From Mytilus edulis (taxonomy: Eukaryota), in the NCBI RefSeq assembly GCF_963676685.1, contig NC_092348.1, positions 992,001 through 1,056,000 on the forward strand: a stretch of 64,000 nucleotides of DNA, given 5' to 3'. This document shows positions 2,304 through 53,112 of the stretch, piece after piece. The translations under genes and the position numbers were made by a program. The notes under the pieces were generated by a model. That model was not told where the DNA came from. It saw only the letters and a list, made by a program, of their open reading frames with translations, and made no database searches. Position 1 is the stretch's first letter. Every line of letters begins with the position of its first letter.

Positions 2304-3289
2304 ATTGAAGAAGAATTGCATCCCAAAGTACAGTTTAAAGCCAGACCACCTGAAGTTCTTAGAAAAGAGCCTTTTATACCAGAAAAATCTACCAAACCTT
2401 TAACAGGTAACTGAAATTTTACATATTCTAGAATGATACATAACACAAAAAGAAAACTTAAAAATTTTGTATATATATCTTCACTAAAACACCTCAGAAA
2501 AAGTTACTAGTCAATAACTGCCTCCAGTCAACAATCCTCTAAAAAGCCGGGACATCAGTGTAAAACTAAATTGTACACAAATATTAATTTGATTCAATTT
2601 TTTATTAATAATTTGTTCATCAGATATTTTATTGGTGAATTTACACTCTGGAAAGACTTGTAAGCCACTAATTCACAGATTATTTTACATTGTTTAACAG
2701 ATCATCATAAAAAGATCTAATTCTATTTATGTATAAAGATTTAAATGCTGAAACAATGAACTAAAGGCCTAAATCCAGCTTTATCTTTGTGTTGTTGTTA
2801 AACAAATACCTCTTGCACATGATTGTAGCGTATCATTGAGAAGACATACATGTGGTAAAAAATCTTGCTTTTTATTGAAACATGAAGCATCACTTTTAAA
2901 ACACCTCATATAGTTGTCTGCCAACTAAATGGTTGAATCATTTTAAAATTTCTATGTACAAACATTATGTAATGTAATTATTCTTTGTTACAGACATTAG
3001 TGAATTTTCCCTGAATACTGAGAAAAGGGCTTACAACCGAGAAGGTTTTGAAATGCATAAGAAGAGCAAAGAGGCTGAGATAGAAGCTGTGAAACGAAGA
3101 ATAGAAAAGGAGAAAGAAGAGGAAGAACAAATGGCCATAGCTAAACTAAGAGCAGAAATGGTACATAAAAGTAACCCTGTTAAAAAATATACAAACGTTG
3201 AAGTTCAACCAAGTGATAAACCTGTAACATATGCAATGTCACCAAAGTTTGAGACAGACAGACGATTACGTAGCAAAGTGAGAGTATAA
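2304..3289 (+). CDS. TPX2: Targeting protein for Xklp2 (TPX2), last two coding exons (2304-2406, 2994-3289); 5' part lies outside the window
   Basis: AG/GT-bounded exons with compatible phase translate to IEEELHPKVQFKARPPEVLRKEPFIPEKSTKPLT-DISEFSLNTEKRAYNREGFEMHKK...KLRAEMVHKSNPVKKY...SPKF, which matches the TPX2 C-terminal domain. Confidence 0.88.
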
Positions 3290-10600: not shown

Positions 10601-13600
10601 GGCTACTTGTTAGAATGACTAGTTGTGATATTTTCATTTCTACCATCCATTTCCTCAGCCACTGTTTAAAAGAAGCCCTTTTCCCCTGAAAAATATTCAC
10701 AAATGTCATTACCGGTAAATAACAAAGGTTCAGATTAATTTGGACTTTACATCTATTCTTAAGTGACAGAACAAATCCAAAATTGTTTCTTTTTGATTGA
10801 AAATTTATATTCTGCGTAAAGTAAATGAAGTAAATTGTACGTGTCTATTATTTTGCAGTTACACTTCTACCTCTGGCCCAAGTTGGAAAGGGTTTAGCCC
10901 TCATAAAAATGTTTTACCCTGCTACATTCTTTATGTGCTTGTCCAAAATCAGGATCCTGTAACTCAATGGTTGTTGTTAGTTCCTATTTGTTTTTCTTAA
11001 AATGCTTTGTCATGAGTTATGCCGTTGTTTAAATTGTTTCACATTTTTTCATATTGGGGCTTTTTATAGTTGACTTTAGAGTATGGATTATCTCATTATT
11101 AAATGCCTTGCAGTAACCTATAACTGCTTACATCTTCAGCATTTAAACTCTGGTGGATATTTGTCACATTGACATATATATATATAACATGTGATATGAC
11201 TACAATTTCATTTTAAACTAACAGCCTTCAATTTCATCTGAGAGGTACTAACAGATTGAAAACATAAATGTTTCATTCTATCTTGTCAGGATGTATTTGT
11301 TAACTTCTATGTGTTTTGGTCCCTGTGGAGTCTTGCTGGCAATCATATCACATCTTCTTATCTTAAATCAATTACAATCCAAGTTAAAACAAAACTACAT
11401 TTTTTATTTGGTATTTTATATAATACTAGAAAAGCATAGCCATACATAACTGAGTACATACTCAAATTATTACTTACTTGAACAAAGGGAGATCTTTGTT
11501 GTATTATTATTGTCTTGTTTTCTGTATTCTCATAAACTGAAATAGTCATCAAGACAACATCTAAGTTGAGGAAATTTGCCTAAATTTATTGTAAATTACA
11601 TACTTATTAACTTTGTCTATCTCTATGTATAAACCTTTATACTAAACAGTGGATTCTTTAACTTTAAAGTTACTAAAATGTTTAATGTGTCTAATATGTT
11701 TGTGGGAATTTTTGAAGAAGACATTTATTTATTTTTATTATCAATCTCAACTCAAACTTAAAAAACACCTCATGTTTACATAATAATTTTTAAATGCTAT
11801 CACATTTTACTATATATTTTAGATGAACTTTATTACCTTCACAATTTGTGACAATTTTACAGGAAATTGATTCAGGATGAGCAAAAGGATCATTTCCAAC
11901 CAATGGCAATATGCTATCATGATAGATATAACCAATTCTCTCCATCCATAATGTGGAGATAATCATATCAACTGCTAACTGTCCAACATTTCCTACTGAT
12001 ACTGCTGGCTGTAATAAAAACACATATGCACAGTCTGCACCAAAAACTTTTTCAACTACTAGTCCGAAGACCAATATTCTGACATTTTTCTTATTGGGCC
12101 AAACAAAGTTTTGCAAAAACTTACTAGTCCGAATGAAATATTACTAGTCTGGGGCATCGGACTAGTGGCTAACCGTGCAGACTGTATGCATGTACTTAAT
12201 GTAGAGATAATCATATCAACTCTGATACTGAAGGGGGGGGGGGGGGAGGGGGGGAAGGGTCCTGATCCTGAAATCCCGAACAAAAAAACACAAAATCCTG
12301 AGGTCCTGAAATTTAAATAAATTAAAATCCCGACATCCCTAAATTCGAAAAAAGAATTCCTGGATCCTAAAAGGGTCAATCCAAAGATCCTGAGCTTAAA
12401 AACACCCGATCCCAGAATCCTGATAAAGGTCCTATCAGGGGCAGATCCAGCCATTTAAAAAAAAAAGGGGGGGGGGGGGGGGTACCCAACACAAGTCAAA
12501 GGGGGATTCCATCTAAATGTCCCCATTCAAATACATTGATTGGCCAAAAAAACGGGGAGGAAGGTCCAGCCCCCGTACCCCCCCTGGATCCGTCAATGCC
12601 TATATTCTAGTATAGTCTTTTAAAAAATTGGCAAGAGTTATACCCATGAGAGAGCTAACAAGGCCATTTTCCATACATTTTTTTAAAGTTGACATAGGCG
12701 GATCCAGGGGGGGGGCCTGCAATTTTGTGGGGGAAATTTGGTTAATTATATAGGGAATCACTGAAGCATGACTGGAGTGCCCCCCCCCCCCCCCCCCCCC
12801 CCCCCTTTTTAGGTCAGTCAGCTGGCCCCCACCCTTATGAACAGATCTGGATCTGTCACTAGTTGAGCGGTCACAGTTTCAGAACTTGTCTGAGATATTG
12901 CTGATATTAACCTGTAGTAAAAAAAAAAATTTAAATCCCGCAAGACTGTCTCCTTGATAGTGGTAAGGAAGCCATTTTCCTTACATTTGATATAATCAAG
13001 GTGCATAAAAAAGTTGTCAGAGCTATTGCTGATATTAACCTATAGTAGGGCTCTATAAGTTTTTTATAAAATCTAGGAAGATCAGAATTATACCTGTGAG
13101 AGCAGAGTCTACAACTCCATGGATGAGACTCCGGTATTTCCATGTACCCCCACAACTCATTACACAGGGGATAATAACTATTACAGCAAACTAATATTTT
13201 CATCATCTAAACTTTAACAATATCTAATAAATTTTGAATGCTCCAGAAACATTAGTCCAAATAATTATGACATCTGGCAAGGCTAGTTATTTGGACTACA
13301 GAAACATCAGAAGTCTGAATTTTAATTTTATTTCCATTGTANNNNNNNNNNNNNNNNNNNNNNNNNNNNNNNNNNNNNNNNNNNNNNNNNNNNNNNNNNN
13401 NNNNNNNNNNNNNNNNNNNNNNNNNNNNNNNNNNNNNNNNNTTTTAAATGCATTTTATGTTTCAGAAATTTATAAACTTTTCTAGATTTTGCTATCCATT
13501 TTTTTTCGTTCCTGCAGAAGGTGCAAAAATTAACTAAGTAGTGAAAACGATTGAGAAGCTTCCCCTGGTATAATCAATGTTGTGAGTAGTATTGATTTAA

Positions 13601-21015: not shown

Positions 21016-24000
21016 ATGGCTATAAGAGTAGCCGTTATTGGAGCCGGTGCTGCAGGGCTGTGTGCTGTAAGACATCTCACTGCTCGTCCAAATATTTTCC
21101 ATACTGTGTGTTTTGATAAAAACCCATCAGAAGGTGGGACATGGATATACACAGAGGAAACAGGCAGTGATAAATATGGTCTTCCTGTACAATCAAGCAT
21201 GTACAAGAACTTGAGGTATATAAAATCATATACATGTATATGAAATGTAATGATAATCTTCCTTTTTATCAGGAATTTTATATGGAAATGAATTAAAAAA
21301 ACATCCCTCTGTAAGGGGATATATATTTGTCATTTATACAAACAAACAAATATTTTACAAATCTGTTGAAAATGATATGATAGAAATCTATATGAGGAAC
21401 CTCTACCACACTTTTTTTTTTTTTTTCTGGAGGGTATCACCAGCCCAGTAGTCAGCACTTCTGTACAGTCTAGAGTTATCATTGATATATTTATAAATAT
21501 AAATTAATGGTTAACAAAACTTTTGAAATATTAAGGCTTTTCTACCTCAGGAATAGATTACCTTAGCTGTATTTGGCAAAACTTTAAGGAATTTTTGGTC
21601 CTAAATGCTCTTCAACTTCATACTTTATTTGGCCTTTTAAACTTTTTTTTTTAATTGAGCGCTGCTGATGAGTCTTAAGTAGACAAAAAGCACATAAATA
21701 TAAAATTTTCATCCTGGGGTCTTTGATGAGTTTATTTATTCAACCATATTCTTTGCACATACAGACCAATTAAACAAATGAGGATTCAAGATTCTGCAAA
21801 ATGGAGACTATTTTTTTTAATACCCTTTTTCAAGTAATTTTTTTCTGTCAGTACTATATCTTTCAACATTTTGTATGAATATGAAAAGTCACAGTAATCA
21901 AATTAACAAGTTATTTAAGATATTTTGTTGTTAATCAATATGAAAATTACATGAATTATAGAACTTAATTTTAGTCATATTCTCACAGAAGAAATGAATG
22001 TTCAGCTTAAAGATGCCTGTAACCATGGTAATTATTATTCAGTAGGTTTAATTGAAAAAGAATAAAGAGATGTGATATGATTTTGTATGAAACAACTATC
22101 CAAAAGAGGCCAATGGATGTGAAATAAACATTTACTATCACAAAAGGTTAACACTTCGGTCAGAAAACAGCTTTTCTATATATATTTTCAGGACAAATCT
22201 ACCAAAAGAAGTAATGGCATTTCCAGGTTTTCCATTCAGATCCTCTCTTCCTTCATTTATAAAACATGATGATGTGTTAGAATACCTCCAAGAATATACA
22301 AAACATTATGATCTCCACAAATGTATAAAGGTATATATTTATATTTATATTTATTGAGCACTTGTATAGATTACATTTAGGTAAATAAAATTGGTATGAC
22401 TTCATATATATATATAGATATATAGATATATCAGTTTTTTTACTACTTTGAAGATAAAAAAACATGTTGAGCTCAACATAGTGCACATCCCACCCATTCA
22501 AGAAATATACACCTACATATTCTGGGTACAAAATTATGGGCAGGTGTATAAATGAAAGTAAATTATAAGCATTGTATTCAACAGTCAATGCAACTCAGGA
22601 AAATTTCATAAATTGTGCACAGTGCATGAATCTAGTGTCGATCTAAAAATTATGATATTGTTAAAGAAATAGTAAAATTTGTTGTCATGTTCTATTTTGG
22701 ACCCCAAAAAGGTCTAAATGTTGGTGTTCCTTAATATTTCACTTTAAAAAAAAGTAGTTAAGAACTACTAATTTAATTGTATTTGATGAATTATAAAATT
22801 TTAATTCATTGTTGCTTATATTTCATGGAAACTAAGAAAATGTTTATATATATTTAAAAAAAAAAAAATGCTATTACATGTATTGAATTTGAAATATAAT
22901 TTATTTGATGTAGTTTGAGACTTTGGTACAACATGTCCGTCCAGAGGTTGATGGTGACAAAACACATTGGCATGTGTCATACAGTAATGTAGGACAAAGA
23001 GATGAAACAAAAACAGAAATATTTGATGTTGTTATGGTTTGTAATGGGTAAATTTTATTATATAAATTAACAGCATGTTGTATAGGGGGTCTCATTGGGG
23101 GGTTCTGATCTCGGATCCTGCTTACTGTTTTGTCAGATTCCCGTATCCCGCTTACACTATGTACGTAAGCAATTCTCATTTTTTTGTCATTTCCTGGGTC
23201 CCGCGAGACCTCATTTCCATGTTTTCATGCCATAATAATTTGACTTTCACTTGTCACGCTTACAAAAAATAGGCAATCCTGCGTCACGCTTAGACCCCAA
23301 TGAGACGCACTGTAAATATAGGGGATCTCTCACTACTAAACATGAACATCGTAATGTCTGGATCCTATCTGAGAACTTGTGGGATTTCTGTGTTTAATAC
23401 CAAACGGGTTACAGCTATTTTTCAGAAGGGTATTTGATGACTCTCCAACTAGTTGACTGTATTTAGTAGTACGACCTTAGTTGAAAGTATGAAGAGCTTG
23501 TAAATACTGTAAATCAACCTATTTTCGCGAGCAATTTATTTTAGTGATTTTCGCGAATAGAAAAACAACGCAAATATGTTATATATGGTTCGTTCCTTAT
23601 TGAACTTCAGAAAATCGCAAAATTAAATAGCCATGAAGTGGTCTAAAAGGAGTAAAACACGAAATTAAGTATCCACGAAAATAAGTTGGTTTACAGTATT
23701 TCATTTTATAGGATATACATTTTACATGAACAGAATATGATTCATTGTTCTTTCATACCAGCAGGAAGTTAGCATGACAATATTTAGAATATATTTTTTT
23801 TCCATACACAATGTTTTGTTATGATTATGTATCGCCAGTTTACCAATACATTGATGTGCACTTCAGAAATTTTTGAAGAGATATCTTTTAGACAATTGTC
23901 TGATTATAAATCATAAAACCAATGTATATCATGTTTATTATATATTTTTCAGGCATTATGAGGTACCACTTTATCCAAAAATTCCTGGTCTTGATGACTT

Positions 24001-25399
24001 TGAAGGGGAGGTAATCCACAGTCATTGTTACAGACATCCTGAACAGTTTACTGGTAAGAGAGTTGTCTGCCTTGGTGCTGCTGCTTCTGGACAGGACATC
24101 GCTGTTGATGTGTCTTCTTGTGCTAAATATGTAAGTAAATTAACATCAAACTTGACTGAAGAGACATTTATTGTGGAAATGGTCCATCTTGTTAAAGGGG
24201 ATATAAACAAGTTTATTTACTCCTCAATGTTTGATGTACTGCAGGGTAGGGGACCATCCTTTAGTGAGTTCACTCGCACTTCTAGTTTAACTGGCAAATC
24301 TGATTTTTTATTTCAAACAATTTTAAATATTAAAAACAAATTTTTTTATGTCAGCATGAGTAAAATTTAAATCTACATTTTTTTAATTTAAGGTTTGTCT
24401 GTTAAAGCATTGACATTATTAATAATAGTATTATATATCCTATATTTTCAGTTATACATGAGTCACAATAAAGCCGTGTTACAGACAGTTGATATTATTA
24501 ATAATAAATAGTATTATATCCTATATTTTCAGTTATACATGAGTCACAATAAAGCCGTGTTACAGACAGTTGATATTATTAATAATAGTATTATATATCC
24601 TATATTTTCAGTTATACATGAGTCACAATAAAGCCGTGTTACAGACAGTTGATATTATTAATAATAGTATTATATATCCTATATTTTCAGTTATACATGA
24701 GTCACAATAAAGCCGTGTTACAGACAGTTGATATTATTAATAATAGTATTATATATCCTATATTTTCAGTTATACATGAGTCACAATAAAGCTGTGTTAC
24801 AGACAGTTTTACCAAATAATGTTGAACAAAGACCTGGAATTAAACAACTGAACAAACATTCTGTGATATTTAAAGATGATAGTGAAGAGGAAATAGATGT
24901 TTTACTCCTGTGTACGGGCTATCTATATAACTTCCCTTTCCTGTCAGAGGATATAGGTTTACAAGTAGAGGAGGAGAGAATATGGCCTCTTTATAAACAT
25001 GTGATACACACACACTACCCTTCATTGTCATTCATAGGTATATTAAAGACAATTTGTCCATTCCCAGCGTTTGATATGCAGGTTAGGTTTGTAATAGCAG
25101 GAATTGATGGGTCTATGCCACTCCCATCTGAAGAAGAAATGAAAAAGGACATTGATAAGGATTTCAAACTTAGACTGTCAGAAGGACTACCTGTTAGATA
25201 TGCCCATAATATGGGTCCAAAACAATGGCGTTATAATGATGGACTGGCAGAAATGGCCAAAATTAAACCTCTTCCTCAAGTGGTTGAAAAGCTGTATGAT
25301 TATGTGCATGAAACTCGTGTGAAAGATATAGCTGGTTATAAATCTGTTAACTATAGTATTGAGGGAGACAAGGATATGTTTAAAGTTGTAGAAACATAA
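21016..25399 (+). CDS. Flavin-containing monooxygenase (FMO GS-OX / senecionine N-oxygenase-like), 5 coding exons: 21016-21215, 22192-22330, 22914-23047, 23953-24130, 24770-25399
   Basis: FAD motif VAVIGAGAAGL, GGTW, SSMYKNLR-TNLPKEVMAF, VMVCNGHY, FMO fingerprint FEGEVIHSHCY (FxGxxxHxxxY), NADPH motif GAAASGQD, DVLLLCTGY; canonical splice sites. Confidence 0.95.
23084..23311. mobile_element. MITE in FMO intron 3
   Basis: Inverted termini GTCTCATTGGGG / CCCCAATGAGAC. Confidence 0.6.
23507..23696. mobile_element. Tc1/mariner-type MITE with TA TSD in FMO intron 3
   Basis: TA|CTGTAAATCAACCTATTTTCG ... CGAAAATAAGTTGGTTTACAG|TA. Confidence 0.7.
24410..24808 (+). repeat. Tandem repeat (79-bp unit x5) spanning the acceptor and first 13 codons of the last FMO exon
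   Basis: TATATTTTCAG|TTATACATGAGTCACAATAAAGC repeated, with the AG ending at 24451, 24532, 24611, 24690 and 24769. Confidence 0.95.
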
Positions 25400-26384: not shown

Positions 26385-27382
26385 TTGCCAACTCTCAAAC
26401 AGAAACCAATTGAAGTACGAATTTGATAATGTGTTCTGTTGTAATTCTGTTGCCAATGAGAACACTCTCAAACAGAGACCAATTGAAGTAAGAGTTGGTA
26501 ATGTGTTCTGTTGTAATTCTGTTGCCAATGGGACAACTCTCAAACAGAGGCCAATTGAAGTACGAATTTGGTAATGTGTTCTGTTGTAATTCTGTTGCCA
26601 ATGAGACAACTCTCCACCAGAGGCCAATTGAAGTACGAATTTGGTAATGTGTTCTGTTGTAATTCTGTTGCCAATGAGACAACTCTCCACCAGAGACCAA
26701 TTGAAGTACGAATTTGGTAATGTGTTCTGTTGTAATTCTGTTGCCAATGAGACAACTCTCCACCAGAGACCAATTGAAGTAAGAGTTTGGCAATGTGTTC
26801 TGTTGTAATTCTGTTGCCAATGAGAACACTCTCAAACAGAGGCCAATTGAAGTACGAATTTGGTAATGTGTTCTGTTGTAATTCTGTTGCCATTGAGACA
26901 ACTCTCCACCAGAGACCAATTGAAGTAAGAGTTTGGTAATGTGTTCTGTTGTAATTCTGTTGCCAATGAGACAACTCTCCACCAGAGACCAATTAAAGTA
27001 CGAATTTGGTAATGTGTTCTGTTGTAATTCTGTCGCCAATGAGACCACTCTCCACCAGAGGCCAATTGAAGTACGAATTTGGTAATGTGTTCTGTTGTAA
27101 TTCTGTTGCCAATTAGACAACTCTCCACCAGAGACCAATTGAAGTACGAATTTGGTAATGTGTTCTGTTGCCAATGAGACAACTCTCCACCATAGACCAA
27201 TTGAAGTACGAATTTGGTAATGTGTTCTGTTGTAATTATGTTGCCAATGAGTTAACTCTCCACCAGAGACCAATTGAAGTAAGAGTTTGGCAATGTGTTC
27301 TGTTGTAATTCTGTTGCCAATGAGACAACTCTCCACCAGAGACCAATTGAAGTAAGAGTTTGGCAATGTGTTCTGTTGTAAT
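26385..27382. repeat. Minisatellite, 73-bp unit, ~13-14 copies
   Basis: Unit AATTGAAGTACGAATTTGGTAATGTGTTCTGTTGTAATTCTGTTGCCAATGAGACAACTCTCCACCAGAGACC; accounts for the repetitive ORFs at 26313-27438. Confidence 0.95.
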
Positions 27383-29679: not shown

Positions 29680-32600
29680 TTAATTAGTTTCATCTAGCAG
29701 CATTAAGAGAGGCACAATTATTGTTGGGAAACAATATACATTGACGCCATTTCTCTGACCAAATATTTTTATAGCTCTTTTCAATATTCTGGATGTCCAA
29801 ACTCTTTTGTCCGTATCATTCTGTGGCATCTGCGTCCCGTTTTGTGATGCAAACTTGCAAATACGGTTATCTATCAAAGAATACGATAATATTGGATCAA
29901 GCTCGTAGAATAGAGCGTTTTTTTTAACATGTATGATGTTATTAATTCTGGTTCTATTCCATCTGTTTTGGGTACACGACTAAGTAAACTTTTTGCCAAG
30001 GTATACCCGTCTTTCAGTTTGGAAAGTATGTTCCGTAATATCAATTTTTCTATACAGAAAAATGATAGCCGTGCATTTTTCTGTCTTACGATAATTTCCC
30101 ACTTGAGGACTTCTGAACTTTGTACAAAATGTTCAAATTTTGGGGGTATGAGATCCTTCAATCCATTCGGTAAATCGTCCAAGACGATTTTGGGGACTAA
30201 ATCGATAATGATGTCCAGGTCGGGGTCGGTCGGGGTGCCGATGTATGCCAAATGTAAAGGTGCAACCAAGTTTTTAGGAGGCGAGGTTTCTTTGTTATAA
30301 CAGGTTCTCCAGTAAAACAGGAGTTCTTCCAAAAATGAGCTGTGTTGAAATATGTTATAAACGGTAGCATTGAATGAGTTCATAAGCGCTTCATTTAAAG
30401 TTTGGTCATGTTCTTGCAATTCTTTTACCTCTTTCCCAAATTCCCTTTCTTGTGTTTCAAGACATAATTGAACTTTGTCTTGTACAGTGAAACAGTCAGC
30501 TCTGATGGACTGACTTATAGTCGTCAACTTGAACAGATAATCAAACTCATACTGTGGATTGATTTTTGTGCCCTCAACCGTGCTTCCAGCTAATTCAATA
30601 ATAGAAGTAAGTAGAGGATTATGTTGCTCTAATTGATTCTTGAGCCTTTCAACAAATTGTTGAACCTTTTGCATAATTTTCTTAACAAATTTGTTCTGTG
30701 TGTTCACTGGTTCTCTAAAAATTTTTGAATTTTTTTTTTAAACTTTAAGTAGGCCGTACAGATTTTTAACAATAATTCTAATTTCAGTTTGTCTTTCTTT
30801 GGTATTTCTCTACCATTTAAGATAAAAATGGACGGATCAAGTATATATCTCAGATTTGACAAGTTTTCAGTTTCGGGCCAGATATTCCAGGCTGGTTGAG
30901 TCATAGCATAATTTAAACATTCCCTACCGAAATTATCTTTCTGGATTTAGCTAATATATGTTTAACTACATCTGTATACCTCAACCAACAAGAAAAGTGT
31001 AGAATAGTCATGCCGTTGATATCTTTTGTGTTTATATCAATTTTGTGCTTCTCCACTATTTTCAACGCGTCATTATCAAACATAGAATTTTGCTTAATAG
31101 AGGCTACAGGATGAATTATCAGTCCGTGGATGAAAGGAAACGGCTAGTTTGAATAGATGATTCGATCATCCCAGCATATTTTGTTAAAAATTTATCTAAC
31201 TCGACTGTGTTTAAGTTGATTATGATAAAACGAAGAGCTGTACGACTAGTATTTCTACAATGTCAAGAATACTAGGTTGGCCTTTAATATCGCGTATTAG
31301 GTGTAGAGGGGAACCATAAAAGAACCGATCCAAACAATCGCCATAAGCACCCCGCTCAAGGAACAAATTTAAGAGTGGCACGTTAGATGTGGTGACAGCC
31401 CAATGTAGTGGACAATATATCGTAGCATTGCTATTGACCTTGTAATCTTTGATCAGCTCTTCCGCTAGATCCATAACGTCAATCTCCGATGCTTTTTTTT
31501 TTAGAGATACTTGGTTCAATTCTACAGAGTTCACATAGCAAATGTAGCCTTAACTTTATGACACTTTTCTCGGTACGTTCTTTCGTGTGTAATAACCAAT
31601 GTTTAACTTTTTTTTATTTGACATACATGTGTCTCAGCGGTTGGAACCTGTGCGTGTGTATATAAAAAAAAACATGGAGCTTGTAACTGTTGTTCAAATG
31701 ATTCCAAAATGGAATTCTCGCCTGCGAGTGTTTTTTCGTCAGCATATATATTTCAATAGAAGCTCCCATATTTCAAGTTGTACATCCTTGTCACTAGCCA
31801 GACCTATGCTTGATTTGCCATTTAACTTGGCGTCGATGAAAGTTTTTAGGTATGCGTTGTCGACCAACTGTTCAACCATTCTAATGTTATTTTCACGGAC
31901 GGCTTTTGGATCTTCTTTGTAAGCGATTTTTTATCATCAGCCATCCTCCATTATTTAGGATTTGTTTCTGATAAATTATATATTCAAATCAACATTGAAA
32001 AAACATAAAACATCTATATCATTCTTAAGGATTTTCTTATCCCAGACATGGACTACCTTAGCCGTATTTGGCACAACTTTTTGGAATTTTGAATCCTCAA
32101 TGCTCTTCAACTTTGTACTTGTGTGGTTTTATGAATATGTTGATATGAGCGTCACTGATGAGTCTTGTGTAGACGAAACGCGCGTCTGGCGTACTAAATT
32201 ATAATCCTTGTACCTTTGATAACTATTAGGAAAAGAGGATAAAGAGTAAGAACGTTTCGAATCTCAAGTCAATATATTCTGTTTGAAAAACTTCTCTGAT
32301 AACTCCTGGCGGATGAGAATATGTTGTTGCTATAATATCATGCCTTTTACAATAGAGGAGGCATTCAAGAAAATTGAGAATGAAAATGAAGAATGTGTCA
32401 AAGAGACAATAACCGGACCAAAGAGCAGGTAAAAAAACGTAGGCAACAAATGGTTATTAACACAGCGAGAAAATCTCGCGCCCAGACGTCGGTTTCAGCT
32501 GGCCATTTTTCCTTACACGACAAAACCAAAACTAAATTCAATTTCACTCATACAACCAGGAACATATATACTGTTCCCTGATAAACATGTGTATAGTCGG

Positions 32601-35128: not shown

Positions 35129-35670
35129 ATATACATTGAACGACAGATATATGTGACGTATAAAATTTTCTGACGTCTGACACGCGAATCAATGTTTGTA
35201 GATAGATGATTTGTGTTCTGTTCAATTGTTCCTTTTAAAATTGTTACACGATGATGGCTGCTGTACCCATAGTTTGACTATTTATTATGTCTGTTTAGTT
35301 CACACATCATTGTAAATATAACAGAATTTGATGAGACTGTCATCAAAGTGAGAGGGTTACCGCTATAAAACTAGGTCTAATCCACCATTTTTTTACATTT
35401 GAAAATGCCTGTAATAAGTCAGGAATATGACAGTTCTTGTCCATTCGTTTTTGATGTGTTTTGTTATTTTATTTAGCCATGTAATTATGGACTTTCTGAA
35501 TTGATTTTCCTCTACGTTCAGTATTTTTGTTATTTTACTTTTCATTGTGGTAAAGGCACGACTCTTCGAGGTAACGGTCGCATTCTTCGAGGTAGGAACT
35601 ATCATCAATCTTCGGGACATTGCTACTGAAAAGAACCAACTATTTTGTTGCACGTAAGAATGCCTAAGGT

Positions 35671-36330
35671 TTATTTAGTATCGGGTGTGAACAGAATGCT
35701 CGCCAGTTCGTTCTATGGTCGAAACTGAAATCAGTCAACGCATATGATATAATCATAGGCGACAAAAAAGCATGTGTACCTCATGGAATTGTGTTTGCAT
35801 TGTTGATGATAATACAAAGTCAACAGCTCATACATTCGATCACGTGTTCAAATACATTGTAATGAAATCCAGCCTCAGCAAACTTCTGAAAATCTTCATC
35901 GTCATCATCTTCAGTGAACAGATCTGAATTATCAAACTTCTTATGGGGTACTCGATACGGCGGGAATCTCTCTGGAGCTAATGTTTGTTGCACATAGAGT
36001 TATAGCGGCATGTAGCTTGCAAGATATAACATTGGTTCAAGGTCGACAGCTGATAAAGGAATATGCCATCCACATTGAAAGCACTGCATGTCAGGTTCAG
36101 CTATGCATACACATCCTGCCAGAGCAATCGTCTCTCTTCTACTCTGATCCTCTATGTTCTTAAGTACCCTCCTCTTCAAATTCTGGTAGAAATGGAACTT
36201 GCATTTTACTTGCTGCTTTATTTAACAGTGCATAAACGACACTACCAAACATATCATTGATGTAGTAGGTATGTGACGGCTTGTATTCTCCACTCACTGA
36301 ACAAGAAACAGACCACACATTACTTTTAGG
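35671..36330 (-). pseudogene. Truncated TIR-BIR gene pseudogene (copy A; only the BIR-containing 3' half remains)
   Basis: High nucleotide identity to 47265-48020 (e.g. GTATCGGGTGTGAACAGAATGCTC, CAGCTCATACATTCGATCACGTGTTCAAA, CATTGATGTAGTAGG) with several deletions; TIR-coding part absent. Confidence 0.9.
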
Positions 36331-37165: not shown

Positions 37166-40100
37166 TTACGGCAAACAGTCCTTGAAGGCTCTTTTATTAG
37201 TTTCATCTACCTGTTCGTTTAGAAGCTTTAAACACTGGTTCAGGACTCTGACATACTGGTTACATCCGAAGTCATCATTACCTGCCATGAAAATGAGAGG
37301 CACACTCATTGCTGGAAAACAATATATATTGACACTATCTTCCTGATCAAATATTTTTATTAGTCGTTTCAATATTTTGGACGTCCAGTTTCTTTTATCT
37401 GTATCCTGCTGCGCCATCTGTATCCCATGTTGTGTTGAAAACTTACAAATGCGGTTATCTATCAAAGAATACGATAAGATTGGATCAAGCTCTAGGAATA
37501 GTTCGTTTTTTAAAATGTATGATGTTATGTATTGTAGGAATGGTGACACTCTATTCATTTCGGGTACACAACCGACTAAACATTTTGCCAAGGTATATGC
37601 ATCTTTCAGTTTGGGCTGTAAGTTCCTTAATATCATTTTTTCTATAGAGGAAAATGATAATCGTGCATGGTTCTCTCTTACAATAATGTCCCACTTAAGG
37701 TGTTCTGAATTGTTTACAAAATGGACAATTTTTGGGGGTTGAGATCGTTCATTCCATTTGGTAAATAATCCAAGACGATAACTGGTACCAAATCGATACT
37801 TATGTCCAGGTTTGGGTATGTCTGTGTGCCAATGTATGTCAAACATAAAGGTGCAATTAAGGTTTGAGGAGGTGAGGTTGCTTTGTAATAACAGGTTCTC
37901 CAGTAAAACGGAAGACCTTTCCAAAAGGAGTGCTGTTGTAATATATTGTAAACTGCAGTATTGAAGGATCTAAGAAGGGCTTCATTTAAAGTTTTGTAAT
38001 CTTTTTCCAATATGTGTACCTGTTTCCAAATTTCACTTTTTTGTGACACGAGACATAACTGAACTTGGTCTCCGTAAATAAAACGGTCAGCTTTAACGCA
38101 CTGACTTATATGCGTCAGCTTGAACTGATAATCAAACTCGTCCTGCGGATAAATTTTTGTGCCCTCGCTTGTGCTTCCAGCTAATTCAATTGTAGAAGTA
38201 AATAGTACGTTATCTCTGTCTAAGCAGTCTTTGACCCTTTCAACAAATTGCTGAACTTTTTGCATAATTTCCATAACAAATGTGTTCCGTGTGTCTACTG
38301 GTTCTCTAATTTTTTTAACTTTTTTTTTTTTAGCCTTAATATAAAAGCCGTACAGATTTTTAACAATAAATCTAATTTCAATTTGTCGTTTTTTGGTATT
38401 TCTCTTCCATTTGAGAAAAATATGGACGGATCAAGTATATACCGCAGAGTCGACAAGTTTTCAGTATCGGGCCAGATATTAGGGGCCAGTTCAGTTATAG
38501 CATAGTATAAGCATCCCCTACCGAATTTATCTTTCAAAAGTAAAGGTAGTTTAGATTTGGCTAATATATGTTTAACTACATCTGTATACCTCAACCAACA
38601 AGAAAAGTGTAGAATAGTCATGCCGTTGATATCTTTTGTGTTTATATCAATTTTGTGCTTCTCTACTACTGTTAATTTCTCGATGATATCGTTTTGATCA
38701 TCCCGTCTTACCTTTAACGCATCCTTTTCCAGCATAGAATTTTGCTTAATGGATGCTACAGGATGAACTATCAGTCCATGGATGAAAGGAAATGGCATAG
38801 ACTGACTTGATGATTTAATTTTCTCACTATATTTTTTAAAAAATATATCTAACTCGACTGGATTTAAGTTGATTATGATAGAATGAAGAGCTGTATATCC
38901 CCTTTGATTTCTCTCAATTGTTAACGAAGCCCCACCATCGACTAGTATTTCTACAATTTCCAGAATTCTAGGTTGGCCTTTAATGTCGCATATTAAGTGT
39001 AGAGGGGAACCATTAAAGAACCGAACCAAACAATCGATATTAGCACCATGTTCAAGGAACAAATTTAAGAGTGGCACGTTAGATGTGGTGACAGCCCAAT
39101 GTAGTGGGCAATATATCGTAGCATTGCTATCGAGATTGACCTTGTAATCTTTGATCAGCTCTACCGCTAGATCCTCCACATCATCCGCCGATGCATTTAC
39201 TGTAGAGATACTTGGTATAATTCTACAGAGTTCACACAGAAAATGTAGCCTTAACTTTATGACGCTTTTCTCTGTTCGCTCTTTCGTTAATAGTAACCAA
39301 TGTCTAACTTTCTTTATTTGACATACATGTGTCTCAGAGGTTGGAACGTGTGCGTGCGAATGTAAAAAACATGGAGCTTCTAACAGTTGTTCGAATGACT
39401 CCAAAACCGGGTTCTCGCCTGCGAGTGTTTTCTCGTCAGCATGTTTCAATAACAGCTCCCATATGTCAAGTTGTACATCCTTGTCGCTAGCCAGATCTAT
39501 GCTTGATTTACCATTTAACTTGGCGTCGATGAAAGTTTTTGGGTATGCGTTGTCGACCAACTGTTCAACCATTTTAATGTTATTTTCACGGACGGCTTTC
39601 TGGAGCTTCTTTGTAAGCGATTCTTCATCATAAATCCTCCGCTTTTTGGGGTTTTCTTCTGTAAAAAAATATAGATATTCAAACCAGCATTGAAAAAAAC
39701 ATTTATATCATTCCTTAGAGAAAGAGGGAGAAAAAGTCAAAACGTTTCGAAGCTCAAGTCAATCTGTTCTGTTTGAGAAACTTCTCTGATAACTCCTGGC
39801 GGATGAGATTATTATGTTTGTTGTTGCTATGTCATGCTTTTTACAATAAACGAGGCATTCAGTAAAATTGAAAACAAAACTGAAGAATGTGTCAAAGAGA
39901 CAACAACCCAACCAAAGAGGAGAAAAAACGAAGCCCACCAATGATTCTAAACACAACGAGAAAATATTGCTCCCGGAGGCGTGTTTCAGCTTGTCATTTT
40001 CCAATGGAAACAAACTGTGCCCTTCTACTTCCGACTTGTTTCTTTATTATTATGAGGCTGACTTCAAGAAAAATGATAAGAAGTTAGCAATATCCTTTAA

Positions 40101-45610: not shown

Positions 45611-46544
45611 TACCCTGTTAGCGATCAACTCGGTCGCGCTGCTTTTGAAGTTTATAATTTTATATGAGTTTTTTTTTTTGCTTTTTTGTTTTTACCTCGA
45701 CTCGTTTGTTTTAATATGGTAATTTTTATAAAATTCCGGTTACAAAACTTTGAATTGTTCGAAAAACTAAGGATTTTCTTATCCCAGGAATAGATTACCT
45801 TAGCCGTATTACGCACAACTTTTTAGAATTTTGGGTCTTCAATGCTTTCAACTTTGTACTTCTTTGTCTTTATAACTATTTTGATCTGAGCGTCACTGAT
45901 GAGTATTCGAATCGCGCGTCTGGCGTATAAAATTATAATCCTGGTACCTTTGATAACTATATTAAAAGATTTTAACATCGGTATACTCATTTTTTTTTTA
46001 AATTTTATATATTTGACTCTGTATGACAAGTTTTTGCTCCCTATGGTCCTATAGCTCCAAGGTATCTTTACATCCACGAATTTCGAATGTTTAGGCACTA
46101 TCTTACCTGATCTTACCTGGTGAAATAAATACAAATAAGCGCTTCTGATGCACGAAATTTATAAAGTTTTTTATTTTTCATTTTCGATTTACATGTTCAG
46201 AAATACTATAGAAAACCACTGTTACCCAAAACGTTATTTACACAGTTTTTTTAGTTGATCTACTCACTGGCCAAAAATAATTTCACTAGGTAACGCTTGT
46301 ACTCTGTTAATGTATAGCCTACAGTTTCTGTTAGCCAATTATTGCTAAATAACGTAAAAAAATAAATAAACACCATCATAATTTCACAGAAAAATTAAGT
46401 CTTTATATACAATTCATTTGATAATTCGACTTAATGAATTTCATTTTTTTGATAAGATGCGTTTCATCTGTAAATGTTATCACATATAAATAAAAAAATC
46501 TTTTCAATAGTTATCACATATAAGCAAAACTTTGGCACATAATA

Positions 46545-46940
46545 ATCGGATTTTATCACATATAAATAGTTAGCACATCAACATATATAGTTACCACGTA
46601 TAAATAGATAGTTAGTACATATAAATAGATAGTTAGCACATATGAATAGAAAAGCACATATAAATAGATAGTTAACACGTATAAATAGATAGTTAACACA
46701 TATGAATAGGTAGTTATCACATATGAATAGGTAGTTATCACTTACAAATAGATAGTTATCACATATAAATACATAGTTATCTCAGAAATAGATAGTTAGC
46801 ACTTACAAATAGATAGTTATCACATACAAATAGATAGTTAGCACTTATAAATAAAAAGTAATCGCATATTGATAAAAAGTTATCACATATGAATAAATAG
46901 TTATCATATTTGAAGAAAAAAAAATAGTAATCACATATTT
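46545..46940. repeat. ~21-bp minisatellite
   Basis: ATAGATAGTTA(G/T)CACATATAA variants, ~17 copies. Confidence 0.9.
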
Positions 46941-47264: not shown

Positions 47265-48794
47265 TTATATAGTATCGGGTGTGAACAGAATGCTCGGCCA
47301 GTTCGTTCTATGGTCGAAACTGAAATCAGTCAGCGCATAAGTTATAATTGTTGGTTCTTTATCTGTAGACCTTTGTGCATTAACCGACTTAATAAAGTCT
47401 ATTCCTTTCTTTTCCAGAACAAATTTACATGTAGGTGACAAAAGAGCATGTGTATCCCAGGGACTTGTGTTTGCATTGTTGATGATGATACAAAGCCCAC
47501 AGCTCATACATTCGATCACGTGTTCAAACCCGTTGCGATAAAAACCGGCATCAGCAAACTTCTGAAAATCTTCATCTCCATCATCTTCCGTGGACAGGTC
47601 TGAATTATCAAACTTCTTATGGTGTACTCGATACGGCGGAAATCTCTCTGGAGCTAATGTTTGTTGCACATAGGGACATAACGGCATGTAACTTGCATGG
47701 TATAACATTGGTTCAAGGTCCATAGCTGACAAAGGGATATGCCATCCACATTGAAAACACTGCATGCGGTCAGGTTCAGCTATGCATACAAATCCTGCCA
47801 GGGCAATCGTCTCTCTTCTACTATGGTCCTCTATGTTCTTTAAAGTTTCTCTTCTCTTGTCTATATCTTCAAACTCAGGCAGAAATGGAACTTGCATTTT
47901 ACTTGCTGCTTTGTTTAACAGTGCATAAACGACACTACCAAACATATCATTGATGTAGTAGGCATGTGACGGCTTGTATTCCCCACTCACTGAACAAGAC
48001 ACAGACCACAAATTACTTTTAGAATGGGGGTTATACGCATCCATAACACATTTCATCAACTCCAGTAAACCTTTACTCATCTCACTATCACCAAACTTTT
48101 CCTCCTCAGTTTCGAGGAAATCATCGGTAAATCCTAAACTAATTGTAGTGTTCAGATCACATAGAAATCCACAGTCTTCGCAAGCTTGTGGAATATTCAA
48201 TTTAGTATGTTCATTAATATGTTTATAGAATTCAGGCAGATCAATGAGAAAGTTCTTATTCCTGGCTGTTATCAACACTCCATACAGGTCCATGTCCATT
48301 TGTTGGAGGAGAAGGCCCTTCGATGAAACAAAATTAGATGCTCCGGTATTCGCATGTAAGATGGAATAACTTGGTATTATTGTCAATAGTTCAGTTTTTA
48401 GATTAGAAACCCAATTCGTGTTAAATCTTATAATTGATGTGTCCCTAAGACAAAATAAACCGTTGACGGATGAAACTTTGCCATCTGTAATCAGTGTGAT
48501 GATTTTTCGCCTTATACTTGGTTCCGTGCAGGCGGACTTTATCATATGGCTGCTTTTTTTGTTTACAGATAAACTTTTAGAAAATATAATCAGTACTTTT
48601 CTGGACTTTGCGACGAGACTAAATGCAGTATCGAAAGTGTTCGTGCCTGGCATGCCATTTTCTTGTAAAGAACTAAAGGAAATATGCTCTGATTCTAAGA
48701 CCGGAAGTATATCATCCCGAGCTTGTTCATCACTGTCGTCATAAAACACAAATAATTGATAATGTTCTGATCTCTGTACGGGACTTGCGTCCAT
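47265..48794 (-). CDS. TIR domain + uncharacterised central domain + two BIR domains (TIR-IAP-like protein, 509 aa, single coding exon)
   Basis: aa ~11-137 TIR-like (YQLFVFYDDSD...ILPVLE...GMPG...KSRKVLIIFS); BIR1 ALAGF..C346-X2-C349-X16-H366-X6-C373; BIR2 FADAGFY..C429-X2-C432-X16-H449-X6-C456 followed by FVLEKKGIDFI; no RING; uninterrupted ORF. Confidence 0.88.
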   Translation of the reverse strand: MDASPVQRSEHYQLFVFYDDSDEQARDDILPVLESEHISFSSLQENGMPGTNTFDTAFSLVAKSRKVLIIFSKSLSVNKKSSHMIKSACTEPSIRRKIITLITDGKVSSVNGLFCLRDTSIIRFNTNWVSNLKTELLTIIPSYSILHANTGASNFVSSKGLLLQQMDMDLYGVLITARNKNFLIDLPEFYKHINEHTKLNIPQACEDCGFLCDLNTTISLGFTDDFLETEEEKFGDSEMSKGLLELMKCVMDAYNPHSKSNLWSVSCSVSGEYKPSHAYYINDMFGSVVYALLNKAASKMQVPFLPEFEDIDKRRETLKNIEDHSRRETIALAGFVCIAEPDRMQCFQCGWHIPLSAMDLEPMLYHASYMPLCPYVQQTLAPERFPPYRVHHKKFDNSDLSTEDDGDEDFQKFADAGFYRNGFEHVIECMSCGLCIIINNANTSPWDTHALLSPTCKFVLEKKGIDFIKSVNAQRSTDKEPTIITYALTDFSFDHRTNWPSILFTPDTI

Positions 48795-51654
48795 GCTTTA
48801 TCACGTGCATTCCAATCAGCTACATGTGTTCAATCCATGATTGGAATCTTTAAACAAAAAACATAGAAAAAAAGTTAAGAGAAAAATTTAAAATTAAATA
48901 TTTGCGTCTTCGATATATACATGATTCTTGTTTTAGTTGTTATTGGCTTTGAACTACTAGTAGCTGTCAGTAACGAAGAACACTCTCAGATCAGTACTTG
49001 ATGTCTGTTTTATTTTTGTGATGTATAAGTACCGGTCCACGTCCACGCTGTGGTTTTGTTAGATGCTGATCTATTTGTATTCATCTAATGAGTTATGCCT
49101 TTTTCAACTTTTTGTTACAGTTTGTACTCATGTTGTATTGTTACATCACTATTCCAGATTAGGAGAGAGGTAAGGGCGACCGCAAACATATTTGACGCTA
49201 TCCCATGTTGTACTCTACTAAGTCAGGAGCATATAATTAAGTGGTTGTCGTTTGTTGCTGTACATTATATTTCCCCCATTGTTTTGTATACATAAATCAG
49301 GCTGCTTGTTTTCTTGTTTGAATTGTTTTACATTTGTCATTTCGGGGCCTTTAATAGCTAACTATGCGGTATGAGTTTTGCTCATTGTTGAAGGTCGTAC
49401 CTTGATCTATAATTGTTATAAACTTCTATGTCATTTGGTCCCTGGCGGAGAGTTGGAGTTGTCTCATTGGCAATAAAAACTTGCTAAAATCCTTTCTTTA
49501 TTATATAGTAATGTATCTGTTCGAAGTAATAACATCTTTTGAATCAGTTATTATTTTCGTTTGTTCTGTGGCAGATCTCTGATGGCCTAATAATTCACCA
49601 GAGTTCATGAAAAGTGGTGGTCCGAAGGTTTTGACCACCAAAATGTTCAATGGACTGACACAATTTTTGTATTTCTCAAAATGAATAATAGTATGATCGA
49701 GAAGACAATCAGATAGTGTCTATATCTGTGGAGTAAGATGCAAACATTTGTTTCGGGATGGGTTTCCTTTCAACGTGGAATAATAGATATAGGAAGATGT
49801 GATGTGAATGCCAATGAGACATCTCTCCATCCAAATAACAATTTATAAAAGTAAACCATTATAGGTCAATGTAAGGCCTTCAACACGGAGCCTTGGCTCA
49901 CACCGAACAAAAAGCTATAAAGGGCCCCAAAACAAACTACTAGTGTAAAACCATTCAAAGGGGAAAACCAACGGTCTACACTTCTTTGAGATGAACAATA
50001 AGTTTTAACTTATGATAACGGATGTGGTCCGAGAATGATAAAAATGTACAAGAAATGCATTTGATGACGTAAATTGGTCTTTCATTTTTGGTTGAGACTT
50101 AAAACGACACTTTACTCAGTATAACCATATTTACATGTTGCAAGAACAAAGGAGACTATGTTATTAAAAAATTGCTTGAATTATAACTTATAATTTCATG
50201 AAATACACCATTACATGTACCGTTGCAACGTGGTTTTCGTGTACTAAAAATTCTCATTTCTAATTATAGAAAAATAAATACCCTTTTTATTTCTCTATCA
50301 TTAACAATCTTGAATTGAGAGGGAAGTAAAAGTTTGGATAAAAAGTATTTCAACAAAATCAAAAATGATTTTATATAAATAACTATCTTACCGTTTCATG
50401 CCACAAAGTGTGAGGACAAAGCCATTTTGTTTCTTTCAATGAGCATGCCCAATGTATCAATAGAATTACTCTTGCATTAAATACTGTATGATATATTTAT
50501 AAACTTAATTTTTCCAATCAATAAAAGATAAGTAAATATTAATATTGTGTCTTATTCTGACGAACGGATTTATACAGTTTAAATCACGGACATGTATCTG
50601 GTGTGGTTGGATCTAAAAAAGAAATCATCTACATACTAAGTGGTTTCTTAGAGCCATTTATCACACCGTGAGAAAGAGACGGCTGATCAAACATATTTAA
50701 TAACATTATAGTATACCACAAACTTGATTCAACTAAATAACATGTGTCTATAAGAGCGAGACATAAATGTGTAGCATTAATGATTATACATAACTTGTAT
50801 TTAGTTACCTGTTGGGTAATTTTAAAATTTCCCATTTTTTTGTCCAAATTCAGTCACCCATGCATAATACGACTGATGACTCGACATATACAGACTTTTA
50901 AAACAGTATATAATATAGTTTGCTTTAGTGTGTTTATGGAATGTTTATTTTTGTAAATGGGTAAGTCATTTATATACATTGCTACTTACTTTATTTTCAA
51001 ATGTTCTTACATTGGTTTATCATACATTTACGATAGATCATAACATAGTGTGTCCTGTGGGTTTTGATACATAATTCACATAGTTTTTTCACTGACACCC
51101 CACCCCCCTCTTAACTTAATTTGGGAAGAATTGACTTACCAATAGGGATATATGTAAAAATTGATTTTAGATATACAAAACTTGTTGAATTTTAACCCCC
51201 CCCCCCCGACCCCAAACTATTTGATTTAAGTTTTTTTTATCCTACATCGATCTTTTGATGTCGTCCCTAAAGAACAAAATCAATTTATTTGTACATCCTC
51301 CTTTTCTTTCATCGATATTAAACTCATATAGATAAGAAATAAGGAAAGTGGATAAGTTGGTAAACCAGACACAGGTCTTGTGACACGTTGTTTGTTTTTT
51401 TCTTTAGCGTATTGCTACTTTTTTTTAACAAGGAAACACACGACTGTAGTTAGTTGCGCCTCTTTAACATGTTCCTTAATTAAGGCGAAAATACTAAAGA
51501 TAATAAAACCTTGGAAAAGTATCTAACAATATTATTTTTCCTAACTGAACTCATCAGTTGAAAGAGAACTAACAATGAACAAGCAAAACACGACAAACGT
51601 CAAAAATGCAGTATACAAAAAAGGGCACAAGACATTTGGGCTATACCATATGCA

Positions 51655-51950
51655 TGACGACGATATCATTTGGGCTACACTATAAGCGTGACCACGGTAT
51701 CACTTGGACTAAACCATAATTGTGACCAGTGTATCATGTGGGCTAAACCATAAGCGTGACCATGGTATCACTTGGGCTAAACCATAATAGTGACCATTGT
51801 AACCATAAGCGTAACCACGATATCATTTTGGCCTAAACCATAAACGTCACCACGATAGCATGTGGGCAAAATCATAAGCGTCATCAGGGATCATTTGGTC
51901 TTAAACCATAAACTTGACCAGGGTATCACTTGGGCTAAACCATAAGTATA
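51655..51950. repeat. ~33-bp minisatellite, ~9 diverged copies
   Basis: AAACCATAAGCGTGACCA(C/T)GGTATCACTTGGGCT variants. Confidence 0.85.
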
Positions 51951-53112
51951 CCGATTTTTCTTTTCTTTAAAAGCTTAACTTGTCATTATAATTTATATTC
52001 ATCACAGTACTGCCAACGAAGTGAAAAAAATATATATAAAAATAAAATAAATGAATGATTCGGATAAGATGGTTCAATTTCGAACCGGTTTAGTGTTAAA
52101 CCACAAAGAAGGGCTAGAATAAAATTCATAAATGTTAACATCGAACTAATAGGAGATGAGCATATTTAGCGATATTAGTCAAAATAATCAGACAAGAAAG
52201 GTCGCGTACGTTTCTATATGCATGGTTAGGGGTAGATAATTTATGTATTAGAACGTTTGAACCCCATGGCTGTCAAGAGATCATTTTCTATTTTACTTCG
52301 ATAGGACTATGCCCATATATATACGACTGAAAAGTTATGTTATAAAGTCACTATTTATTCAGGACTTTGATCAAGTTTGAAGTTCAATTATATATGCAAC
52401 CGTACGGACTTTAACAATTAGAAAAACCAATACCTTATTATATTTGGCTATAAAAGGCTATAGATTTTGAGAGAAACCTTTTACAAAAGACAAATAAATA
52501 AAATCAAATTGCATTAAGTAATATCACTCAGGCAAATGTCTACATTCTCGAGCAGCGGTTCATTAGTAATTTTACAAATCAGTACTTGTATGTTAACATA
52601 AATATTGACCTATAGAAAGCAAGAGTACTTTTGTAGTTTGTTTCATATCATGATATTGTATTAAGTCACTTCCTCGTTATGGGATGGGACTTGTCTGCAT
52701 ACACCATATATGAAGCTCCATAAAGGGAGGGGATGTCCCTCCTTAATCTACAGAGTTTAATCGTTTGTATCTCAACCAATTACCCCTTTAATGTAATTGT
52801 GGTTCTGTAAATAAATGCTGATGTTGTATTTCATATATATGACTAGAAAAAAAGATAAAGTTTTCTTATGCATCTGACAGCAGCTTGGGCAATTTTCCTC
52901 ACAAATGTGTAATGAAATAGTTGGGTGGTATTAAAAAATTCTTAATACACTCTATAACTATAAACACAATTTCACCAAAGTTGTGATATCATATTGATAA
53001 AAAAACACCGGACATCCACTAAAAAAAAACTATTTGTACAGAAAAACAAGTATATCTTTTCTTCAGATGCAGAACCTCAACTTTATAATTTGAACTAAAA
53101 CCAATACTAATC

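Follow-up and report, generated by a model that had tools for sequence, protein, structure and literature searches.

A conserved bivalve TIR-X-BIR-BIR protein family with a tentatively proposed adaptor role in Toll-like-receptor signalling

Canonical inhibitor of apoptosis proteins (IAPs) carry BIR domains at the N-terminus and a RING at the C-terminus. A Mytilus edulis gene at 47265..48794 (reverse strand) of the window (the whole 64,000-nucleotide stretch analysed here, NC_092348.1, positions 992,001 to 1,056,000) raises the question of what is done by a protein that places two BIRs behind a TIR domain. Its one coding exon specifies 509 amino acids (aa): a TIR domain, a middle region that we call domain X, two BIRs and a terminal strand. 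An earlier, sequence-only reading had described the locus as TIR-[unknown]-BIR-BIR in a single coding exon, which holds, and had suggested a domain scan as a check. The gene is transcribed and belongs to a conserved bivalve TIR-X-BIR-BIR family. We propose, at slightly less than even confidence, that its product is a cytosolic adaptor without enzymatic activity that acts on Toll-like-receptor (TLR)/MyD88 signalling, most likely as a brake. The family is real and conserved and, as a family, apparently undescribed; what is new is how two known immune domains are arranged around domain X, itself without a recognised fold.

The suggested scan, run with Pfam, returned BIR plus a weak TIR_2 only, in line with the claimed absence of RING, CARD and UBA. 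Both BIRs have the C-x2-C-x16-H-x6-C zinc ligands attributed to them, one such BIR being enough to class the protein as IAP/BIR-containing. In the same scan, the cIAP layout (N-terminal BIRs, then UBA, CARD/death domain and, at the C-terminus, RING) was not found; the BIRs occupy the C-terminal half, behind the TIR and X, an order as atypical for an IAP as had been stated. A RING pattern occurs in none of the 30 X-bearing proteins among the best 150 library matches, as against 68 of the 120 others. A M. edulis protein with the database name ‘BIRC2_3’ matches at 99%, and the top match in both the sequence search and Foldseek is NAIP, through its tandem BIRs.

The sequence-only reading treated the gene singly and missed that its architecture characterises a gene family of several subfamilies. 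Searching the mussel’s own genome gave 31 matches, with complete frames on C5 (the gene under study), C9, C10 and C2 (two); further ones on C3, C8 (two, their BIR1 degenerate) and at a second C9 locus emerged when a distant relative served as the query. The genome thus holds at least nine complete single-frame copies, and about 14 partial or broken ones lie beside them or elsewhere, a pattern of copy expansion and loss typical of immune genes. Among the 150 library matches, 30 carry X and 24 carry TIR and X, as counted with TIR and X profiles built partly from those same matches. Every species-named protein among 30 looked up comes from a bivalve, the sources being Mytilus, Pinctada imbricata, Pecten maximus, Mizuhopecten yessoensis, Mercenaria mercenaria and Sinanodonta woodiana; 509-aa orthologues, all intact, occur in five Mytilus species. 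A quick tree of 41 rows places 29 in subfamily 1 (Shimodaira–Hasegawa-like approximate likelihood-ratio test [SH-aLRT] 99), with subfamilies 2 and 3 separate from it (SH-aLRT 100 each). Under the general classification of bivalve groups, the sequences suggest that the architecture is likely older than the split of these groups, because subfamily 1 mixes mussel, pearl-oyster and scallop sequences with clam and unionid ones. Subfamily 3 (L046 and L047 on C8, L048 on C9, L049 on C7) has a weak TIR and an X that is divergent, yet ends in the same terminal strand; in the C8 pair the first BIR is degenerate. A 342-aa frame on C3 (L060:1299-2324, reverse strand) comprises X, a single BIR, a terminal strand and an acidic tail, with no TIR in frame.

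The open reading frame (ORF) is covered, to a depth of about 6–28, by contigs from three runs that belong to three studies and are called RNA-like because their RNA origin is presumed; from 50164 to 53000 most intergenic bins have zero depth. A 5′-untranslated-region (5′-UTR) intron is likely, because contigs break off at a polypyrimidine tract plus AG (48848..48880, reverse strand), the likely 3′ splice site, 53 nt upstream of the ATG: the match of two of them ends at 48849/48848, leaving 28 and 7 bases unaligned. The upstream 5′-UTR exon was not located. Just downstream of the gene, at 46507–46938, RNA-like contigs diverge in a degenerate tandem repeat, its unit about 20 bp long.

The TIR domain (aa 10–138; 48381..48767, reverse strand) has the flavodoxin-like fold of five strands and five helices, as the TIR-like N-terminus proposed earlier would require. 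Its BB loop, aligned to the IPG of TLR2 by way of a subfamily-2 TIR, retains the box 2 Pro-Gly (Pro49 in 23 and Gly50 in 21 of 26 aligned subfamily-1 rows). The column of the catalytic Glu (helix alphaC), which we take to be equivalent to that of SARM1, was positioned by aligning the CKYEL of a subfamily-2 TIR with that of TLR2; it holds Met84 in the mussel protein and Glu in none of the 26 aligned subfamily-1 TIRs. The suggestion of a scaffold that is probably not an NAD+-cleaving enzyme (NADase) therefore agrees with the alignment. Glu is retained in 2 of 17 rows of a wider alignment, one being the C3 copy (L038:1477-3555, reverse strand), a subfamily-2 gene with a 693-aa frame. The TIR of L038 keeps C-x-Y-E and its BIR2 is type II-like, making it the best candidate for an enzymatic or IAP-binding-motif (IBM)-binding family member.

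What had been left as an unknown middle region is a conserved, folded alpha/beta domain (X, aa ~152–298; 47901..48341, reverse strand), which matched no family and, among solved structures, no fold. Its H192-x3-H196-x8-C205-x2-C208 motif (48171..48221, reverse strand) is a candidate zinc site; of 30 aligned rows in which none of the four positions is empty, 18 have the motif complete, and H196 is kept in 32 of 32 aligned rows. Subfamilies 2 and 3 do not have the motif. A C-terminal helix and conserved beta-strand (47268..47405, reverse strand; strand aa 482–490) are predicted to complete the X sheet: in the full-length model strands 482–490 and 263–270 both form, and when X is modelled alone strand 263–270 turns to coil. 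Thr482 is kept in 23 of 27 rows, and each subfamily ends in a similar strand.

BIR1 (aa 303–380; 47655..47888, reverse strand) keeps its zinc ligands and first helix, with Arg314 present in 31 of 31 rows. Between it and the BIR2 core (aa 407–463; 47406..47576, reverse strand) lie a shortened linker, a degenerate BIR2 first helix and an acidic loop (aa 381–406; 47577..47654, reverse strand). The BIR2 N-terminal helix, noted earlier as lacking, is degenerate in the mussel orthogroup: BIR1’s last Cys stands 42–43 aa from the BIR2 AG motif in the mussel orthogroup as against 50–72 in complete relatives, His replaces the helix Arg in 3 of 28 rows, and model confidence (predicted local distance difference test) is below 50 at residues 389–405. 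The IBM groove, defined by equivalents of Trp310, Asp/Glu314, Glu/Gln319 and Trp/His323, is absent from both BIRs, which read S/L/Y/Y (BIR1) and N/T/T/L (BIR2) at these positions. Type I BIRs have Leu/Val at position 80 and no IBM groove (BIR types follow PMC8917759, section 7, and PMC6360406). By this definition BIR2, with L452, S453 and a groove of H-A-L-L-S-P-x-C, is type I-like, as it is across subfamily 1 (L/I/V at position 80 and Ser81 in 25 of 27 rows each), and BIR1, with Tyr at position 80, fits neither type. According to PMC6360406, type I BIRs bind TRAF2/TAB1 through the first helix; judged by the overall helix rather than by contact residues, this helix-turn-helix surface is intact in BIR1 and degenerate in BIR2.

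Under the adaptor proposal, the TIR would enter TLR or MyD88 TIR assemblies by its BB loop; X would form one structural unit with the two BIRs and the terminal strand, displaying BIR surfaces; and the intact first helix-turn-helix of BIR1 would recruit or sequester partners of the TRAF2/TAB1 kind. Because no RING is present, bound partners would not be ubiquitylated, and NF-kB output would be damped or redirected, not driven. Several points weigh against this proposal. Whether the effect would be that of a brake or of an activator is argued by analogy. The degenerate BIR2 first helix weighs against binding of TRAF2/TAB1 by BIR2 in the mussel orthogroup. The TIR is 47–49% identical to two close orthologues versus 74–77% for X and the BIRs, and its faster change could equally reflect relaxed constraint. 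One raw-read RNA run, of which about 6 in 100 were sampled, had no reads on the ORF. Finally, family members may not have one common mechanism, because two subfamily-2 members retain the Glu and three carry type II-like BIR2 grooves.

The main alternative, though an unlikely one, reverses the flow: X-BIR-BIR would serve as receptor or bait, its target being a pathogen effector, an IAP antagonist or a small ligand that X binds, and ligand-driven clustering would let the TIR at the N-terminus nucleate MyD88 signalling, a layout like that of TIR-STING or TIR-NLR proteins. TIR-STING and TIR-SAVED, with TIRs that are among the fold matches, resemble the mussel protein in placing binding modules C-terminal to an N-terminal TIR; tandem and broken copies are numerous, X is conserved without a recognised fold, and 16 of 28 subfamily-1 rows retain the groove Trp in BIR1. 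However, the N-terminal-TIR sensors known so far signal mostly as NADases, and the catalytic Glu is missing here; the match to oyster TIR-STING (PDB 6wt7) is confined to the TIR (model residues 7–139); and X-BIR-BIR is more conserved than the TIR in the mussel orthogroup, the opposite of most pathogen sensors. STING was not among 50 listed structural matches for X alone, modelled without its likely terminal strand. A more specific version, which we consider doubtful, makes X a new fold that an inserted BIR pair splits and the C-terminal strand closes. The X-BIR-BIR unit would then sense, inside the cell, that IAP-binding proteins are being attacked by a pathogen or released by the host (or would sense a small ligand) and would turn on signalling through TIR-MyD88. 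If a sensor, the family would be a bivalve-wide class of cytosolic immune receptor wiring cell-death surveillance straight into the Toll pathway.

It is improbable that the protein is a caspase-inhibiting IAP whose TIR serves only to localise it to receptor complexes. The zinc-complete BIRs, the name BIRC2_3 and the type II-like BIR2 of three of the four subfamily-2 proteins speak for it, but W310/E314/W323-type groove residues are missing from both BIRs, BIR2 fits type I and the RING is absent; because neither BIR carries the caspase-binding groove, a caspase-inhibition assay would be expected to be negative for this protein. We regard a SARM1- or TIR-STING-like NADase as very improbable, given Met84 and its column; TLR2 shares the CKYEL Glu, yet to our knowledge is not an NADase. 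A non-functional retrocopy or chance fusion is hardly credible: the coding sequence is intronless, broken copies are numerous and retroposed IAPs are common in bivalves (PMC7831173), but the Mytilus orthologues are intact, distant bivalves have the identical architecture, RNA-like transcripts cover the ORF, and the allelic changes listed in it (at least ten; of those listed, seven are silent and the three replacements fall within the first 52 residues) are mostly silent.

The sequence-only interpretation therefore stands for the TIR fold, atypical order, RING absence and non-NADase scaffold, and is not supported for retroposition as a recent event: all nine complete copies found have a single coding exon, the family occurs in distant bivalve groups, and the local duplication is of tandem DNA. 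A genome search with X found no multi-exon parent, the loci (at least ten) all being family ORFs or their broken copies. A processed retrogene, an intronless copy of an intron-containing parent in the same genome, is not supported, given this absence and the likely 5′-UTR intron. Domain shuffling, also proposed earlier, survives as an ancient event, with or without retroposition, after which copies arose and decayed in tandem; this the evidence supports. Within the window, the 3′ half of the gene recurs as a broken tandem copy (aa ~259–499; 35565..36329, reverse strand), which carries stops, a frameshift and a deletion, matches with DNA identities of 88% over 591 bp and 82% over 206 bp with stops within the match, and was duplicated together with its neighbour gene. 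Canonical IAPs on C12 likewise hold two BIRs in one long frame; L042–L045, L050–L056, L063 and L064 form large tandem arrays there, with two BIRs per frame of about 500–580 codons.

Bivalve TLR and IAP repertoires are very large, and a conserved family that joins TIR and BIR in one chain is a direct candidate for linking them. Among known proteins, RING-less and BIRC2/3-like IAPs, including bivalve BIRC9–12 (PMC8917759) and types A–G (PMC7831173), share zinc-complete tandem BIRs, and bivalve IAPs also share lineage-specific tandem expansion and intronless members; the mussel protein differs in that its BIRs follow a TIR and X and in having no RING, UBA, death domain or IBM groove. Unlike the non-catalytic TIR adaptors and regulators MyD88, TIRAP/MAL, BCAP and the oyster TIR-only MyD88 variants, it has no death domain, and its partner modules are X and two BIRs. 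In oyster TIR-STING and other N-terminal-TIR sensors the match ends with the TIR, whereas here two BIRs come after X. NAIP (BIR x3-NACHT-LRR) is likewise a RING-less BIR protein of innate immunity, but the mussel protein has neither NACHT nor LRR and its BIRs are C-terminal, not N-terminal. The ecTIR-DC families (Gerdol 2017, PMID 28109746) are cytosolic invertebrate TIR proteins with a hypothesised adaptor/regulator role, according to PMC6321704.

No description of a TIR+BIR protein was found in the full-text literature searched, outside which lies the Gerdol 2017 bivalve TIR survey, which may list the combination; none appears in the passages covered of PMC4346834, PMC9980059, PMC13093298, PMC9334734, PMC3308963, PMC8905726, PMC6321704, PMC6360406 or PMC8662601. 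In the architecture section of PMC8917759 (Witkop 2022), none of 14 bivalve IAP architectures includes a TIR, and PMC7831173 (Song 2021) sorts IAPs by their numbers of BIRs and RINGs. One scallop gene model of the family, XP_021372726, which has no TIR, is in the PMC8917759 alignments as ‘XIAP-like’ (11 of 16 supplements covered; the other five may bear on the question). Published IAP surveys seem to have carried family members as XIAP-like or BIRC2_3 with the TIR unremarked. Some members are already auto-annotated with a TIR, the UniRef name of several being ‘TIR domain-containing protein’. Domain X is of interest as a well-modelled domain without a match among solved structures, single-exon coding sequences ease experimental work, and the family is relevant to how farmed mussels, scallops and clams resist disease; its significance would be much greater if the sensor role or a new fold were shown.

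Elsewhere in the window, two tandem intronless genes at 37166–39707 and 29707–32006 (both reverse strand; motif GSTSEGTKIYPQDEFD) encode ankyrin repeats and what we take to be a cGLR/Mab21-like nucleotidyltransferase, and Pfam gave no NTase domain match in either. The label rests partly on PMC9980059. Both genes are split by frameshifts in the assembly, one at an A-run, and a C4 paralogue is a single open frame. Together with the TIR-X-BIR-BIR gene and its broken copy, the pair makes up a duplicated two-gene block. An SNF-family transporter (53089 onward, forward strand) lies head-to-head with the TIR-X-BIR-BIR gene; further features are a flavin monooxygenase (23855–25399, forward), a TPX2-domain exon (2978–3289, forward), a PAC2 exon (11790–12140, reverse) and a tandem repeat at 26389–27382, whose unit of about 73 bp gives several spurious long frames.
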